Below, piece after piece: positions 1 to 22,967 of a stretch of DNA of 37,649 bases. The notes under the pieces are model-generated. The model made no database searches and had not been told where the DNA came from. It worked only from the letters and a program-made list of their open reading frames with translations. The stretch's first letter is position 1, and every line of letters starts with the position of its first letter. This DNA comes from a virus (taxonomy: Duplodnaviria; Heunggongvirae; Uroviricota; Caudoviricetes). Position numbers and translations under genes: made by a program. The stretch lies in the IMG/VR virus record IMGVR_UViG_2579778631_000021; one strand, given 5' to 3'.

Positions 1-1284
1 CTACTTCTTCGCCTCTGCAACCACTTTGCTACCCACGCCGCGGTTATTGTATTCCCACATGCGGTTGTAGTTAGTGTCATTCAGATTGCGCTGTACTTCG
101 TCGTTATCATCAACGCTGCCGGTGTTACCCGCGAATGGACGATTGGAAATCACCGCATCGGCCCACGGTTTCGCCGTGTTAAAACCTTCGTTGATGGCGC
201 TATCACGGATCACCACCTGACCGTTGGTATTGGCATCAACATCCAGCGAGCGGCCCAGTTGCGCCACACCATCACCGGAAGCATTGAAACGGCTGTTTAC
301 GGCGAGGAAACCGTAGTAAATGTTGGACAGCGTAGCCGGTGCAAACACATACGCTTCTTGCTGGGTACGGGAGTTCACCACGCGGAATTCGGTGTTATCG
401 AACACCACTGCGCCGCGACCAGAAACGATATCCACATCTCCTTCGATGTAACTGTTGGTCACCAGCGTACGCGGCTGACGATTCGTTTCCAGACGGTTTT
501 GCACACCGCTGTTGGTGACAAAGAAGGTGTTCTGACGACCGAGAATGTTGACGTTATTGATCTGCACTTTGTCGCCATCAGTACGCAGTGCCACCGCCGG
601 ATGGTTACCCGCATCTACGCTATCGCCCAGCGTGTTTTCGATGGTCAGGTTTTGCAGTTGCAGGCCATTGTTTTGTGACCAGAAGACCGCAGAGCAGAGA
701 ACACCGATACTGTCGCTGCGTTTACTCTGGCAGCTATCGTACATATACCACGCCGGTTTACCTGGCATATATTTGCCGCGCGGGTTGACGTCGTGACGCC
801 AGTCGGCAGGGCTCATGCCACCATCAAGGGAAAGCCCAATCTTCACATCAATCGGTTTTTCACCTGTACCGTACAGAGTAATTCCACCCGGAGCGGCAGG
901 GACATACACCGTTCCCTGATACTCACCAGGCATCACGGCAATATACTGGCGCTTGTTGGTACGCTTGATAATTGCCGCATCTACCGCCGCCTGAATCGTG
1001 GTATGCGTTACACCTTGAGTACCCGCCGGGCCGACAACAAAGTCAGGTTGCGCAGGCAGGGTAATCGGGGAAGGATTCCACGCTGCCGCACCTGGTGTCA
1101 GGGATGCAAAATAGTGTTGAGCATCGAAATTCTGCGCTTCTTTTGCCGACAGAATCGGGCGCGAAGAGGTACCAGGCGCGGTTTGATCAGAAGGACGTTG
1201 ATCGGGCGGTGTTGAGCTACAGGCGGTCAGCGTCACGCCAAAAGCCAATGCCAGCGCCAGACGGGAAACTGAAAATGTGTTCAC
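1..1284 (-). CDS. ybhC: Host outer-membrane lipoprotein YbhC (pectinesterase-like), flanking lambda attB
   Basis: Complete 427-aa ORF with lipoprotein signal peptide (LTAC lipobox); recalled as the host gene on the ybhC side of attB-lambda; immediately followed by att core. Confidence 0.7.
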   Translation of the reverse strand: MNTFSVSRLALALAFGVTLTACSSTPPDQRPSDQTAPGTSSRPILSAKEAQNFDAQHYFASLTPGAAAWNPSPITLPAQPDFVVGPAGTQGVTHTTIQAAVDAAIIKRTNKRQYIAVMPGEYQGTVYVPAAPGGITLYGTGEKPIDVKIGLSLDGGMSPADWRHDVNPRGKYMPGKPAWYMYDSCQSKRSDSIGVLCSAVFWSQNNGLQLQNLTIENTLGDSVDAGNHPAVALRTDGDKVQINNVNILGRQNTFFVTNSGVQNRLETNRQPRTLVTNSYIEGDVDIVSGRGAVVFDNTEFRVVNSRTQQEAYVFAPATLSNIYYGFLAVNSRFNASGDGVAQLGRSLDVDANTNGQVVIRDSAINEGFNTAKPWADAVISNRPFAGNTGSVDDNDEVQRNLNDTNYNRMWEYNNRGVGSKVVAEAKK

Positions 1285-18590: not shown

Positions 18591-18914
18591 ATGAAGATGC
18601 CAGAAAAACATGACCTGTTAGCCGCCATTCTCGCGGCAAAGGAACAAGGCATCGGGGCAATCCTTGCGTTTGCAATGGCGTACCTTCGCGGCAGATATAA
18701 TGGCGGTGCGTTTACAAAAACAGTAATCGACGCAACGATGTGCGCCATTATCGCCTGGTTCATTCGTGACCTTCTCGACTTCGCCGGATTAAGTAGCAAT
18801 CTCGCTTATATAACGAGCGTGTTCATCGGCTACATCGGTACTGACTCGATTGGTTCGCTTATCAAACGCTTCGCTGCTAAAAAAGCCGGAGTAGAAGATG
18901 GTGGAAATCAATAA
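18591..18914 (+). CDS. S: Holin S (class I, dual-start MKM)
   Basis: 107 aa [39 protein letters not shown]... recalled as lambda S; sdi hairpin CCCC-TTAT-TGGGGG just upstream. Confidence 0.95.
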
Positions 18915-19374
18915 TCAACGTAAGGCGTTCCTCGATATGCTGGCGTGGTCGGAGGGAACTGATAACGGACGTCAGAAAACCAGAAATCATGGTTATGACG
19001 TCATTGTAGGCGGAGAGCTATTCACTGATTACTCCGATCACCCTCGCAAACTTGTCACGCTAAACCCAAAACTCAAATCAACAGCAGCCGGACGTTACCA
19101 GCTTCTTTCCCGTTGGTGGGATGCCTATCGCAAGCAGCTCGGACTGAAAGACTTCTCTCCGAAAAGCCAGGACGCTGTGGCACTGCAACAGATTAAAGAG
19201 CGTGGCGCTTTACCGATGATTGATCGCGGTGATATCCGTCAGGCTATCGACCGTTGCAGCAATATCTGGGCTTCACTGCCTGGCGCTGGTTATGGTCAGT
19301 TCGAGCATAAGGCTGACAGCCTGATTGCAAAATTCAAAGAAGCGGGTGGAACGGTCAGAGAGATTGAGGTATGA
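18898..19374 (+). CDS. R: Endolysin R (lytic transglycosylase)
   Basis: 158 aa [39 protein letters not shown]... recalled as lambda R. Confidence 0.95.
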
Positions 19375-19808
19375 GCAGAGTAACCGCGATTATCTCCGCT
19401 CTGGTTATCTGCATCATCGTCTGTCTGTCATGGGCTGTTAATCATTACCGTGATAACGCCATGACCTACAAAGAGCAGCGCGATAAAGCCACATCCATCA
19501 TCGCTGATATGCAGAAGCGTCAACGTGATGTAGCTGAACTCGATGCCAGATACACAAAGGAGCTTGCTGATGCTAACGCGACTATCGAAAGTCTCCGTGC
19601 TGATGTTTCTGCTGGGCGTAAGCGCCTGCAGGTCGCCGCCACCTGTGCAAAGTCAACGACCGGAGCCAGCGGCATGGGCGATGGAGAAAGCCCAAGACTT
19701 ACAGCAGATGCTGAACTCAATTATTACCGTCTCCGAAGTGGAATCGACAGGATAACCGCGCAGGTTAACTACCTGCAGGAATACATCAGGACGCAATGCC
19801 TTCGATGA
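19371..19808 (+). CDS. Rz: Spanin inner-membrane subunit Rz
   Basis: N-terminal TM segment, coiled-coil periplasmic domain; overlaps R stop. Confidence 0.85.
19570..19755 (+). CDS. Rz1: Spanin outer-membrane lipoprotein Rz1 (embedded in +1 frame of Rz)
   Basis: Signal peptide with lipobox LLGVSAC, Pro-rich mature region; fully embedded in Rz. Confidence 0.7.
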
Positions 19809-20255
19809 TAGCGATAATTTTACTCATCATCCTTCACATCTGGCTCTGTAGACAGGGTGGTGATCACTTCTGGAGTGAATCCAGATTAAACATCTCATTG
19901 CTGATGCTTGATATTGAGCATCTGGCGCGCGGTAAGGGGCTGCGTTGAGATAAGAGCCAGTTCATTACAAAGCCTATCTACTGGTGGGCTTGATAATGAA
20001 ACCGGAATTTATTCTGGGTAACCAGTTACGGCAGTACCGCGAAACAACCCAAGCCAGTAAGTGGGGAAATAACACTGGCAGCCACTGAAAGATGAACCTC
20101 CTGCCTTATGGCAAAAAAGATTCTTTGTGGTGGCGGACTGATGGAAAGACATCGGTTATTGCAGAGGCCATTCAATGAGTGGTCTCGACAATGGCTTATA
20201 CCCTACACGGGATAACTTAACTGATATCCCTTTTAACGGATAAACGGAGCCAACA

Positions 20256-20498
20256 ATGGCAGAGATTATTCCCATGACTGAAGAACAGAAATTCAAGTTA
20301 GAAATTTACCGACTGCTATCTAAGAACAATTCAGCGGCAGAGGAAGCGTTTGCATTCATTGGTGCTGACCAGTTGAAACTGGAATTGTTCAAGTTGCACT
20401 ACAACGATGGCGGTGCAAATCCAGACTTCACATCTCGCACTATCGAAGCGGTGCGTAAATCGAAGGAAGCGTTAGACCTGTTCACTACCGGAGGGTAA
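20256..20498 (+). CDS. Hypothetical protein (80 aa), P22 orf80-like position
   Basis: ORF with ACGGAG SD; located between lysis genes and small terminase. Confidence 0.45.
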   Translation: MAEIIPMTEEQKFKLEIYRLLSKNNSAAEEAFAFIGADQLKLELFKLHYNDGGANPDFTSRTIEAVRKSKEALDLFTTGG

Positions 20499-21001: not shown

Positions 21002-21490
21002 ATGGCAGCACCAAAGGGCAACCGATTTTGGGAGGCCCGCAGTAGTCATGGGAGAAACCCTAAATTCGAATCGCCTGAGGCGCTGTGGGCTGCTTGTTGT
21101 GAATACTTCGAGTGGGCTGATGATAACCCACTATGGGAGGGTAAGGTATTTTCATATCAGGGAGAAATAATTAAGGCTAATGTCCCTAAGATGCGAGCCA
21201 TGACTATTTCAGGATTGTGTACCTTCCTTGATATCACCAGGCAAACGTGGGGAACCTTCCGGTCAATGGAAGGTTTTTCTGACGTCACATCACGAGCGGA
21301 AGACATCATCTACGACCAGAAATTCTCTGGCGCAGCCGCTGACCTTCTCAACGCTAACATAATCGCCCGCGATTTGGGCCTCAAAGAGCAGTCGCAAGTT
21401 GAAGACGTGACACCTGATAAGGGAGATCGCGATAAGCGACGCTCTCGTATCAAGGAGCTTTTCAACCGTGGAACTGGACGCGATTCTTGA
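21002..21490 (+). CDS. Terminase small subunit (P22 gp3-like)
   Basis: 162 aa [38 protein letters not shown]... recalled as P22 gp3. Confidence 0.85.
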
Positions 21491-22967
21491 TAACCTGAGC
21501 GACGAAGAGCAAATCGAATTGCTCGAGCTACTCGAAGAAGAAGAGAACTACCGGAACACACACCTGCTATATGAATTTACGCCATACAGCAAACAGCGTG
21601 AGTTCATCGACGCCGGGCATGACTATCCAGAGCGCTGTTTTATGGCTGGTAACCAGCTTGGTAAGTCATTTACTGGTGCTGCTGAAGTCGCGTTTCACCT
21701 TACAGGGCGTTATCCGGGCACAAAAGGCTATCCTGCTGATGGTAAATATGGCGGTGAGTGGAAAGGTAAGCGTTTCTATGAGCCTGTTGTCTTCTGGATT
21801 GGCGGCGAGACAAACGAGACTGTAACCAAAACGACTCAACGCATCCTGTGCGGTCGTATCGAAGAGAATGATGAGCCTGGCTACGGTTCCATACCGAAAG
21901 AAGACATCATTAGCTGGAAGAAGTCTCCTTTCTTTCCGAACCTTGTTGATCATCTTCTGGTTAAGCATCACACGGCTGATGGCGTTGAAGATGGCATTTC
22001 AATCTGCTACTTCAAACCATACTCGCAAGGCCGCGCTCGCTGGCAGGGTGACACAATCCACGGCGTGTGGTTTGACGAAGAGCCACCATACAGCATTTAT
22101 GGCGAAGGTCTTACCCGTACCAACAAATACGGGCAATTCTCAATTCTGACGTTTACCCCGCTGATGGGGATGTCTGACGTTGTTACCAAGTTCCTGAAGA
22201 ATCCCAGCAAGTCGCAGAAAGTGGTCAACATGACCATCTATGACGCTGAGCACTACACCGACGAGCAGAAAGAGCAAATCATCGCATCATATCCTGAGCA
22301 TGAGAGAGAGGCGCGTGCTCGCGGTATTCCTACGATGGGTAGCGGGCGAATCTTCCAGATACCGGAAGAGACGATTAAGTGTCAGCCGTTTGAGTGCCCT
22401 GATCACTTCTACGTAATTGGCGGGATGGATTTCGGATGGGATCACCCGCAGGCGCAGGTTCAGCTTTGGTGGGATAAGGACGCAGACACAATCTACGTTT
22501 CACGCGTGTGGAAGGCGAAAGAAAAAACAGCCGTTCAGGCATGGGGAGCTGTTAAATCATGGGCGCATAAAGTGCCAACAGCATGGCCTCATGACGGAAA
22601 CCAGCATGAGAAGGGCGGCGGTGAGCAGCTCAAAGGGCAGTATGCAGATGCTGGTTTTATGATGTTGCAGGAGCATGCGACATGGCCTGATGGCGGTAAT
22701 GCTGTTGAGCCTGGCATCACTGAATTGCGAGACATGATGCTTGATGGTCGCTTCAAAGTATTCAACACCTGTGAGCCATTCTTTGAGGAGTTTCGCCTCT
22801 ATCACCGTGATGAAAACGGGAAGATCGTCAAGCTTAACGATGACGTTCTCTCCGCCGTTCGCTATGCATACATGATGCGCCGCTTCGCCAAAATGATGCG
22901 CGACATCAAAAAACCAAAAGAGAAAAAGATACCAGCCCCAATCAGGCCCATCGCACGGAGAACTTAA
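21468..22967 (+). CDS. Terminase large subunit (P22 gp2-like)
   Basis: 499 aa, GTG start overlapping gp3; Walker A GNQLGKS; nuclease domain acidic motifs. Confidence 0.9.

Follow-up and report, generated by a model that had tools for sequence, protein, structure and literature searches.

Between the lysis and packaging genes of a P22-like (Lederbergvirus-type) lambdoid phage, represented by the 37,649-nucleotide (nt) IMG/VR record IMGVR_UViG_2579778631_000021 (the whole of it hereafter called the window), lies an interval, 19809-20255, that runs from the end of the Rz gene to the start of the orf80/DUF2560 gene. Judging by related phages and prophages, this interval is the unoccupied form of a moron slot, that is, of a site for accessory cassettes, which lies between the lysis cassette and the packaging genes of P22-like and HK97-like lambdoid phages. 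Two hairpins within it, which we named hpA and hpC, appear as members of a widespread, covarying and uncatalogued family that marks accessory cassettes, genes of the anti-defence type included. The moron hot spot at this locus was already known; the hairpin family is new and has no Rfam counterpart. We regard as probable the overall explanation of an empty moron slot whose hairpins act on RNA and serve as patches of homology, and in its descriptive part we are confident.

The two hairpins are paralogous structures of about 48 nt, in each of which a 2x2 internal loop (5'-CA / 5'-GA) separates an outer stem of 7-8 base pairs (bp) from a 9-10 bp inner stem closed by a small loop. hpA folds at -21.9 kcal/mol (z -4.9, 0 of 200 shuffles folding as well) and its minus strand at -17.9 kcal/mol; hpC folds at -23.6 kcal/mol (z -4.7), its minus strand reaching only -12.6 kcal/mol (z -1.3). 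Neither had been reported in a first-pass annotation of this DNA, which had singled out a 6-bp inverted repeat, GGGATA-N10-TATCCC. That repeat, here called hp2, lies exactly where it had been placed (arms at 20209-20214 and 20225-20230); taken alone, its fold is within chance (-9.4 kcal/mol, z -1.55, 19 of 200 shuffles folding as well). The region 19945-20260 as a whole is structured far above chance (-108.8 kcal/mol, z -6.4, 0 of 100 shuffles), and much of this excess is accounted for by hpA and hpC.

A covariance model trained on 31 distinct copies of the hairpin recovered only hpC (63.2 bits) and hpA (56.1 bits) from the whole 37.6-kb window, the next best match scoring 14 bits, and it found one or two co-oriented copies in each of 100 related loci. 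The family extends over more than 200 fetched phage and prophage loci. A second scan of IMG/VR, which required non-standard bases at one inner-stem pair and yielded 107 loci, contributed about 68 further variants, and a scan of the genome collection with the orf80 protein returned 7 loci only, including a Citrobacter variant. At one locus (L028) the main copy is followed, about 580 nt downstream, by a divergent extra hairpin (1230-1277, minus strand; 34.7 bits), which suggests that older, more diverged members exist and are barely detected by the current model.

Across the variants, the base of the hairpin is kept (CCATT(A/C)-CA-AAGC ... GCTT-GA-TAATGG), and the upper stems vary yet stay complementary (GCGTCTC/GGGGCGC, GCTCATC/GGTGAGC and GCACCTG/CGGGTGC, among others). 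In an alignment of 31 distinct copies made with MAFFT (A1), 94.9% of the cells are paired and 9 of the 17 pairs have changed on both sides; in an alignment of 67 distinct copies from an independent pattern scan (A3), the corresponding figures are 91.7% and 13 of 17. Controls with slid partners reach at most 48.7% and 46.5%, respectively. Compared with the Sf6-type copy, hpC shows three double changes from A-U to G-C, together with G·U pairs. Among the cells that are not Watson-Crick, G·U outnumbers A·C by 133 to 23. Because of this excess, and of the energy advantage of the plus strand at hpC, we take the folding strand to be the one that is sense to the late operon. As the covariation shows, selection preserves pairing within the hairpin on the strand that is sense to the late transcript.

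No catalogued RNA family covers these structures. Rfam 15, searched permissively with every family (AgvB and AsxR included) and at E-values up to 10, gave nothing at the hairpins in the window or in nine homologous loci. A covariance-model scan of the interval, which the first-pass annotation had proposed, likewise returned no family at its gathering threshold; the best Rfam match in the interval, to Proteo-phage-1 at 20048-20083, we treat as noise (16.8 bits vs a gathering score of 42, with 82 model positions in 36 nt). The earlier suggestion of a non-coding RNA or regulatory region is partly supported by two hairpins with strong covariation and sense-strand folding, and finds no match among Rfam families. 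By consensus scan, the interval contains neither a plus-strand intrinsic terminator nor a plus-strand promoter-like site, and -35/-10 hexamers sought by eye in the TTGATAAT arm showed no workable spacing. Since hpA and hpC have no U-tract, the hairpins are not considered terminators. Resemblances to an IHF site, to nut (boxA/boxB) and to P22 boxB were dropped by eye, as these motifs are not conserved across the copies.

Copies of the hairpin tend to sit at gene ends. Of 118 distinct contexts, 71 have an open frame of 40 codons or more on the same strand whose end lies no more than 10 nt from the hairpin (opposite strand, 19 of 118), and 56 of these 71 frame ends fall at one fixed distance from it; the stop codon of the upstream gene often lies within the outer stem (TAG in GTAGCCATTA). 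The upstream genes are mutually unrelated and include Rha-like and Tad2-like ones and several families without known function; the names Rha-like and Tad2-like were given here by sequence inspection, the Tad2-like Citrobacter homologue being the one tested with Pfam. A canonical intrinsic terminator often precedes the hairpins. In a second set of 103 copies, lysis genes lie upstream of 60 and packaging genes downstream of 25, and lysis genes lie downstream of 11, which places these copies between Q and the holin (12 when one copy with only Q upstream is counted). The late operon has its other classical moron slot at this Q-holin site. In two IMG/VR prophage contigs (L142, 5002-5048; L167, 262-308) the hairpin follows immediately on an 81-amino-acid (aa) open reading frame (ORF) in the stretch from the Q antiterminator to the holin. 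Copy number is one in P22 and two in ST64T, and some loci carry arrays of three or four gene-plus-hairpin units; no copy was found from Q to cos in lambda or in the Qin prophage of K-12 (25 kb of K-12). In several relatives, multiple copies of the small RNA genes STnc100 and isrI lie a few kb upstream of the hairpins (L213, 4467-4771; L234, 2781-3946), an arrangement typical of Gifsy/lambda-like late regions that puts the prophage types hosting the hairpin in context.

The copies also bear marks of exchange. Hairpins of the type of hpA occur with either 3' flank, GAAACCGG as at hpA or GGCTTATACC as at hpC, the 5' arm varies with the upstream cassette, and in the CFT073 prophage an hpA-type hairpin is joined straight to the hpC flank, everything between them being deleted. 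Since such chimeric copies exist, crossovers have occurred inside hairpins.

The evidence for an accessory slot comes from the relatives. The moron concept itself reportedly goes back to Juhala et al. in 2000. By megablast, the interval is found in 210 phage records, often in two or three pieces split by inserts (as in HF4s, phiv205-1, Huey, Sf6, epsilon34, CFT073 and HK97), so that close relatives share the flanks and carry unrelated inserts or none, as in a moron slot. The cassettes, with domains assigned by Pfam search, encode Rha, KilA-N, Tad2-like and Phage_gp49_66 (Gp49/Sf6-g66) proteins, a T5orf172/MUG113-domain protein (GIY-YIG nuclease in RefSeq) and, in P22, pid. As the first-pass annotation had pointed out, P22 holds rha (orf201) between gene 15 (Rz) and orf80, and lambda holds bor directly after Rz, on the opposite strand. 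In the window all cassette slots are empty, and a contiguous empty layout of this kind is also seen in SEN22 and ST64T. Of 5426 complete E. coli genomes, 691 match the 293 bp from 19963 to 20255 in one place with a coverage of at least 80%, and 2552 contain at least a part of them; empty alleles are therefore common, at about 13% of the complete genomes. The part most widespread in these genomes is query positions 215-282, corresponding to window 20177-20244. Sequence of the interval also lies, unannotated and with 94-98% identity, between gp73 and gp74 of HK97, and it occurs in HK022 and the mEp phages as well. By Cenens et al. 2013 (PMC3573128), the P22 orf25-orf80 site is described as a genuine moron locus at which relatives have no insert or another one.

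Ten annotated relatives were placed on the window to map the junctions (Table 1); the cassettes of relatives go in at three or four set points of the backbone. Cassette-bearing relatives have CATTACAAA at both ends of the insert at junction A, which consists of an intrinsic terminator, the cassette and a further copy of the hairpin; the left junction keeps CATTACAAA and the right one a complete hairpin. The cargo here is a 114-aa gene in HF4s, Rha in phiv205-1 and the CFT073 prophage, and a Tad2-like protein in Huey. In epsilon34, the insert that carries the T5orf172-domain gene has junction A as its left boundary, and the backbone resumes at 20028. The KilA-N insert of HK97 (gp73) has its left boundary at about 19801, within the end of Rz, and not at 19971. 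In P22 the order is rha, backbone, pid moron. A canonical intrinsic terminator (AGCCTCGCATTCGCGGGGCTTTTT) stands ahead of the cassettes in epsilon34, HF4s, phiv205-1 and CFT073, as expected of self-contained units, and for pid a promoter and a terminator have been shown experimentally (PMC8835761). In refined form, what the first-pass annotation had called a possible recombination scar is a mosaic hot spot reduced to its backbone and free of cassettes; its breakpoints lie at ~19963-19971, ~20011-20028, 20153/20154 and ~20207-20245.

Within the spacer that separates the hairpins, 20028-20153 is homologous to the sequence directly 3' of the rha stop codon in P22, and 11 nt of the rha 3' tail (TCACTAATTAA) are found at about 20015-20028 in HK97, phiv205-1, Huey and epsilon34. 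Comparison with P22 and related phages, earlier proposed as a way to find remnants, turned up this tail, in the spacers of relatives, as the only true gene remnant. One-nucleotide indels separate the relatives at about 20005-20030 and in the A-run 20113-20118. Identity of the spacer to the relatives is 93-98%, no higher than that of the neighbouring mosaic segments.

Table 1. Features of the interval and its surroundings (positions in the window)
Feature	Position	Strand	Basis or remark
Holin	18591-18914		name from annotated relatives
Endolysin	18898-19374		name from annotated relatives
Rz	19371-19808		name from annotated relatives
50-aa ORF, homologue of Sf6 gene 65 / epsilon34 gp67	19796-19948	+	ORF list and PHROG profile
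hpA, type 1: TTCATTA-CA-AAGCCTATC-UACU-GGTGGGCTT-GA-TAATGAA	19957-20005	+	inverted repeat, fold, model hit
Junction A, CATTACAAA, 9 bp	19963-19971	+	relatives HF4s, phiv205-1, Huey, epsilon34, CFT073 prophage
Non-coding spacer	20006-20153	+	non-triplet indels, non-conserved ORFs
Junction B	about 20011-20028		Sf6 has 68 bp here
Junction C	20153/20154		Sf6 gene 66, Huey and other Phage_gp49_66 genes inserted here
hpC, type 3: GGTTATTG-CA-GAGGCCATTC-AAU-GAGTGGTCTC-GA-CAATGGC	20154-20196	+	fold, model hit
Linker CTTATACCCTAC between hpC and hp2	20197-20208	+	alignment of relatives
hp2: GGGATA-N10-TATCCC, then TTTT	20209-20230	+	inverted repeat
Fourth insertion point	about 20215-20243		P22 pid moron, divergently transcribed
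Shine-Dalgarno GGAG and ATG of orf80 / DUF2560 gene	20246-20258	+	right-hand anchor of the slot
orf80 / DUF2560 gene, 80 aa	20256-20498		name from annotated relatives
Small terminase	21002-21490		name from annotated relatives
Large terminase	21468-22967		name from annotated relatives

Regarding the mechanism, we propose that on the Q-antiterminated, polycistronic late mRNA each hairpin would form an intercistronic 3' structure, which would act as a barrier to 3'-to-5' exonucleases, as a processing site for a double-strand-specific nuclease of the RNase III type, or as both, and would thereby set the stability of the upstream accessory message. The conserved base (CCATTA-CA-AAGC ... GCTT-GA-TAATGG) would, in addition, offer a short homology patch for the gain, loss and swap of cassettes. 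In the window phage, cassettes would have been lost or never gained, hence only the boundary elements would be left. The geometry of an RNase III site is present in the hairpins (17-20 bp, a conserved 2x2 loop and a sense-strand fold). That they are RNA stabiliser or processing elements, as the analogy suggests, we consider a serious possibility somewhat short of probable. A bolder proposal, which we hold only tentatively and think rather unlikely, is that the 48-nt hairpin (CCAUUA-CA-AAGC ... GCUU-GA-UAAUGG, with a variable, compensated top) would be a dedicated, factor-recognised boundary signal for cassettes in the late operons of enterobacterial lambdoid phages, controlling the fate of cassette mRNA and directing exchange. 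If so, it would be the lambdoid counterpart of the promoter-early stem-loops (PeSLs) of T4 or of the attC sites of integrons, the exchange would include anti-defence genes such as those for Tad2-like proteins, and the class of structured elements would be one that is absent from Rfam and of which no description was found in the literature searched.

Having raised the possibility of action on RNA, we would consider whether the hairpin could instead work as single-stranded DNA, in the manner of attC, folding in the plus strand in the course of replication or recombination, with a recombinase or annealing protein inserting and excising cassettes at it. The arrays of gene-plus-hairpin units with the hairpin at the 3' end of each, the breakpoints inside the hairpin, the chimeric hairpins and the 9-bp repeat CATTACAAA flanking the inserts would all be expected of such a site, as would the imperfection of the palindromes, which keep an unpaired 2x2 loop and vary at the top. 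The arms CCATTA / TAATGG, however, depart from the attC R-box consensus, the loci read have no dedicated recombinase gene associated with the slot, and the junctions do not fall at one fixed nucleotide; moreover, the orientation of the hairpins is always sense with respect to the late genes, and they adjoin stop codons, as expected of an mRNA element. We consider a recombination site of this kind unlikely.

Alternatively, the interval might be a neutral scar, i.e. functionless linker DNA whose conservation reflects recent ancestry and homologous exchange and whose hairpins are accidental palindromes. This would agree with an identity to relatives (93-98%) that is not above that of the flanking genes, with the many mosaic breakpoints inside the interval, and with lambda and the K-12 Qin prophage, which manage without the hairpin. 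It would leave unexplained the compensatory changes at 9-13 of 17 pairs among 31-67 distinct copies, with more than 91% of the cells paired against less than 49% for slid partners, the strand-specific excess of G·U over A·C, the fixed position of the hairpin relative to stop codons, and an upper stem that varies but is compensated above a conserved base. We give this explanation little credence.

A third alternative is a small regulatory RNA (sRNA), either derived from a 3' untranslated region or independently transcribed, that would comprise hpC, the single-stranded linker CUUAUACCCUACAC, hp2 and U4, with its seed in the linker. Its layout would be apt (a 5' stem-loop, a single-stranded stretch and a terminal hairpin with UUUU), the core from hpC to hp2 (window 20177-20244) is the part most widespread in E. 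coli genomes, and AgvB and AsxR exemplify short sRNAs 3' of moron genes at other lambdoid sites (PMC4104026). Against it stand the lack of a plus-strand promoter-like site, the weakness of hp2 (-9.4 kcal/mol), its loss in ST64T and Citrobacter though hpC is kept there, the lack of an Rfam match, AgvB and AsxR included, and the fact that hpA has no such downstream module. An sRNA of this build is in our view very doubtful. Known prophage sRNAs (AgvB, AsxR, Pas) were considered as candidates and set aside, as they belong to other families and to the PR'/Q-S site.

Least of all do we believe in a decayed gene, i.e. a remnant of rha, of a Gp49-family gene or of 'orf118' inactivated by mutation, as the first-pass annotation had in part envisaged: for it speak a remark in the epsilon34 record on similarity to the N-terminus of ST64T orf118, and the 11 nt of rha in the spacers of some relatives, whereas the cassettes are absent as whole units with clean junctions and without in-place degradation, the indels are not multiples of three, and the backbone ORFs are intact in only a fraction of the homologues, being cut by mosaic junctions, with no PHROG or NCBIfam match except a sub-threshold one (phrog_24942, E 0.0083) for a minus-strand 49-aa ORF. 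The same three observations on these ORFs (no conservation, frameshifting indels, no match above threshold) led us to reject small-protein coding in the backbone. As for orf118, in ST64T orf-118 (L140, 1647-2003) the orf80 homologue is read from a start further upstream, the in-frame ATG at window 20108, an extension that arises because ST64T has no hp2; orf-118 is an annotation artefact and no separate gene, on which ground we rejected a remnant of 'orf118' or of a Gp49-family gene. This also disposes of the similarity noted for epsilon34.

Returning to the proposal of an empty slot with RNA-acting, homology-patch hairpins, several points weigh against it. First, the RNA-level role of hpA and hpC is read from sequence, and a hairpin of the plus DNA strand is possible, given that G·T pairs are tolerated in single-stranded DNA too. 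Second, the structure imposed on A1 was written by us from these same sequences, and with A2 and A3 fitted to the model, their pair counts are biased in favour of the structure. Third, both collection scans used patterns holding parts of the hairpin motif, so that conservation of the hairpin base and of the linker between hpC and hp2 is partly built in; the linker CTTATACCCTAC was itself part of the pattern with which loci L018-L137 were fetched, and these are uninformative on its conservation. Fourth, the copies are for the most part closely related, which inflates the shuffle statistics. Finally, the hairpin is dispensable for a lambdoid late operon, since lambda and the K-12 Qin prophage have no copy, and the spacer may be without function.

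The left third of the interval holds a small gene that had been missed. The first-pass annotation described the interval as ORF-free with only short ORFs of 13-34 codons. Our ORF list agrees that there is no ORF of at least 60 aa within 19809-20255 on either strand, but it holds a 50-codon ORF (19796-19948) as well as, further to its right, ORFs of 35, 37, 46, 47 and 49 codons, and the 50-codon frame covers 19809-19948. It starts 13 nt ahead of the Rz stop codon, overlapping Rz, and is matched over its full length by phrog_11822 (residues 1-50 of 50, E 3.9e-38); annotated counterparts are Sf6 gene 65, epsilon34 gp67 and, in CFT073, a gene for a hypothetical protein. The frame is intact in 58 of 59 full-length homologues from the fetched loci, with zero indels. 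The 22 variable sites distribute over codon positions as 7/3/12, a signal that is only modest. The product has an N-terminal hydrophobic segment. Taken together, the gene-65 homologue is probably a real small gene, and we suggest that it should be called in annotation. In HF4s, an extended form of this ORF is labelled 'Rz2 o-spanin' (L007, 973-1140), likely an annotation error in the public record. Relatives annotate Rz1 embedded within Rz (Sf6, L010 762-947; epsilon34, L001 1262-1447), and a 70-aa ORF at window 19543-19755 occupies the corresponding position inside Rz. In SEN22, a frameshifted insertion-sequence transposase after Rz (L003, 285-1432) removes the start of the gene-65 homologue, and the backbone is empty as in the window.

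Other annotations at the locus deserve comment. P22 orf25 (L139, 1950-2027) falls within the 3' arm of hpC and is perhaps spurious. HK97 has kept, unannotated, the first ~60 nt of the orf80/DUF2560 gene (L002, 1795-1854, between gp73 and gp74; window 20256-20315) upstream of the HNH gene gp74, so that a mosaic junction lies inside orf80 in that phage. Tad2-like (anti-Thoeris, PF11195) genes occupy the slot in some relatives and Phage_gp49_66 genes in others (Huey, L009 1222-1722; Citrobacter prophage, L017 2159-2437), and the Huey record labels both of its slot genes, Tad2-like and Phage_gp49_66, 'anti-CRISPR'. The lysis-packaging junction thus looks like an anti-defence or accessory island.

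The hp2 region is less clear-cut. With its 6-bp stem, 10-nt loop and UUUU, hp2 falls short of a terminator at a z of -1.55; its TATCC (20225-20229) has an alternative partner in GGATA (20238-20242), and 20209-20246 can be read as a tandem pair of units, each UAU(A)CCC-N5-8-GG(G)AUAA(A). In P22, hp2 is replaced by a variant hairpin followed by the pid moron, and ST64T and Citrobacter have none. Clearer tandem units, such as UAUCCCC-UUGC-GGGGAUAAAAC, lie 60 nt downstream of the hairpin in the relatives L155, L213 and L234; their general form is UAUCCCC-N4-GGGGAUAAA, and they are similar to the type I-E CRISPR repeat in its stem base and 3' handle. For the hp2 units a mimic of this repeat (Racr / Cracr) was considered, which would call for a repeat-like hairpin, a handle that matches the repeat of the host, and processing by Cas6e. 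That repeat reads UUCCCC...GGGGAUAAACCG, with ...UUCCCCGCGCCAGCGGGGAUAAACCG as its 3' part. In the window, only GGATAAACGG matches it, which is at chance level by our estimate, and no CRISPR-DR family of Rfam matches. Phage RNA anti-CRISPRs and CRISPR-like regulatory RNAs directed against I-E systems have been reported (PMC10651486; bioRxiv 10.1101/2024.10.29.618823).

As first described, then, the interval is an ordinary one, a moron slot left empty and holding one small gene that had been missed. Its wider interest is that the slot is the home of exchangeable genes (Rha, KilA-N, Tad2-like anti-Thoeris, Gp49/Sf6-g66 and pid) in P22-like and HK97-like phages and many prophage relatives. A covarying hairpin at the 3' ends of these cassettes provides a sequence handle for finding cassettes, and with them candidate anti-defence genes, in prophages. 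It also makes testable the hypothesis that expression of the cassettes comes from the late transcript and that the hairpin is the route by which phages exchange them.

Among known systems, the lambdoid moron sites offer a first comparison. The P22 pid locus (orf25-orf80) has the same position in the late operon, from the lysis genes to orf80 and the small terminase, and there, too, inserts differ among relatives or are absent and often bring their own terminator; the window differs in being an empty allele with zero morons. A recurring hairpin at cassette ends goes unmentioned in the excerpted text of the P22 pid moron-locus literature (PMC3573128, PMC8835761). The Sf6 record gives for this stretch only the boundary sequence bsq7, inside gene 63, and the hairpin is not among its boundary sequences; the motif sequence was not found in the literature searched, where only unrelated primers matched.

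Integron attC sites share several traits with the hairpin. They have the R-box consensus RYYYAAC / GTTRRRY. The likeness lies in an imperfect palindrome at the 3' end of each promoterless gene cassette, with a conserved base, a variable top, unpaired internal bases and one strand that folds preferentially. The lambdoid hairpin differs in its arms, CCATTA(C) / (G)TAATGG, which lack the R-box, and in a symmetric CA/GA loop in place of extrahelical bases; no integron integrase occurs in the loci read, and the junctions are not at one fixed bond. AgvB and AsxR, anti-sRNAs at the PR' moron site of enterohaemorrhagic E. coli (EHEC) prophages (Tree et al. 2014, PMC4104026; RF02702, RF02703), are likewise short structured RNAs, encoded just after moron coding sequences in late regions of lambdoid prophages. 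They belong to another family, however, sit mainly in the Q-S slot, and have their own promoters and Hfq binding.

The hairpin also resembles known elements of long transcripts. The intercistronic RNase III sites of T7 and the sib retroregulator of lambda are processing sites in phage transcripts, and REP-type hairpins stabilise mRNA. In common with these, the lambdoid hairpin has a stem of ~20 bp with an internal loop, is located, within a long phage transcript, between two cistrons or at the immediate 3' side of a gene, and occurs in several related copies per genome region; by analogy, it would function on the sense RNA only. There is no sequence similarity, and the cleavage or stabilisation that we propose for it is an inference. 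REP / BIME elements, moreover, which are GTAG-flanked palindromes associated with a RAYT transposase, occur in many copies dispersed genome-wide, whereas the lambdoid hairpin is confined to two late-operon slots: the window has two copies in 37.6 kb, both in the interval, and 25 kb of K-12 have none. The GTAG frequent at the hairpins is not a REP flank; its TAG is the stop codon of the upstream gene.

The T4-type PeSLs mediate modular shuffling (Arbiol et al. 2010, PMC2839356). Both they and the lambdoid hairpin are short conserved stem-loops bordering small non-essential genes in hyperplastic regions, and in both cases recombination between copies explains insertions, deletions and replacements among close relatives, chimeric copies being the footprint, as found here. 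PeSLs carry a strong sigma-70 promoter and a terminator stem-loop, whereas here no promoter was detected and there is no U-tract; sequence and phage group are unrelated, and the lambdoid hairpin has a conserved 2x2 internal loop and covariation. With these differences in mind, the hairpin family would, by analogy, be functionally closest to the PeSLs and to intercistronic processing hairpins.

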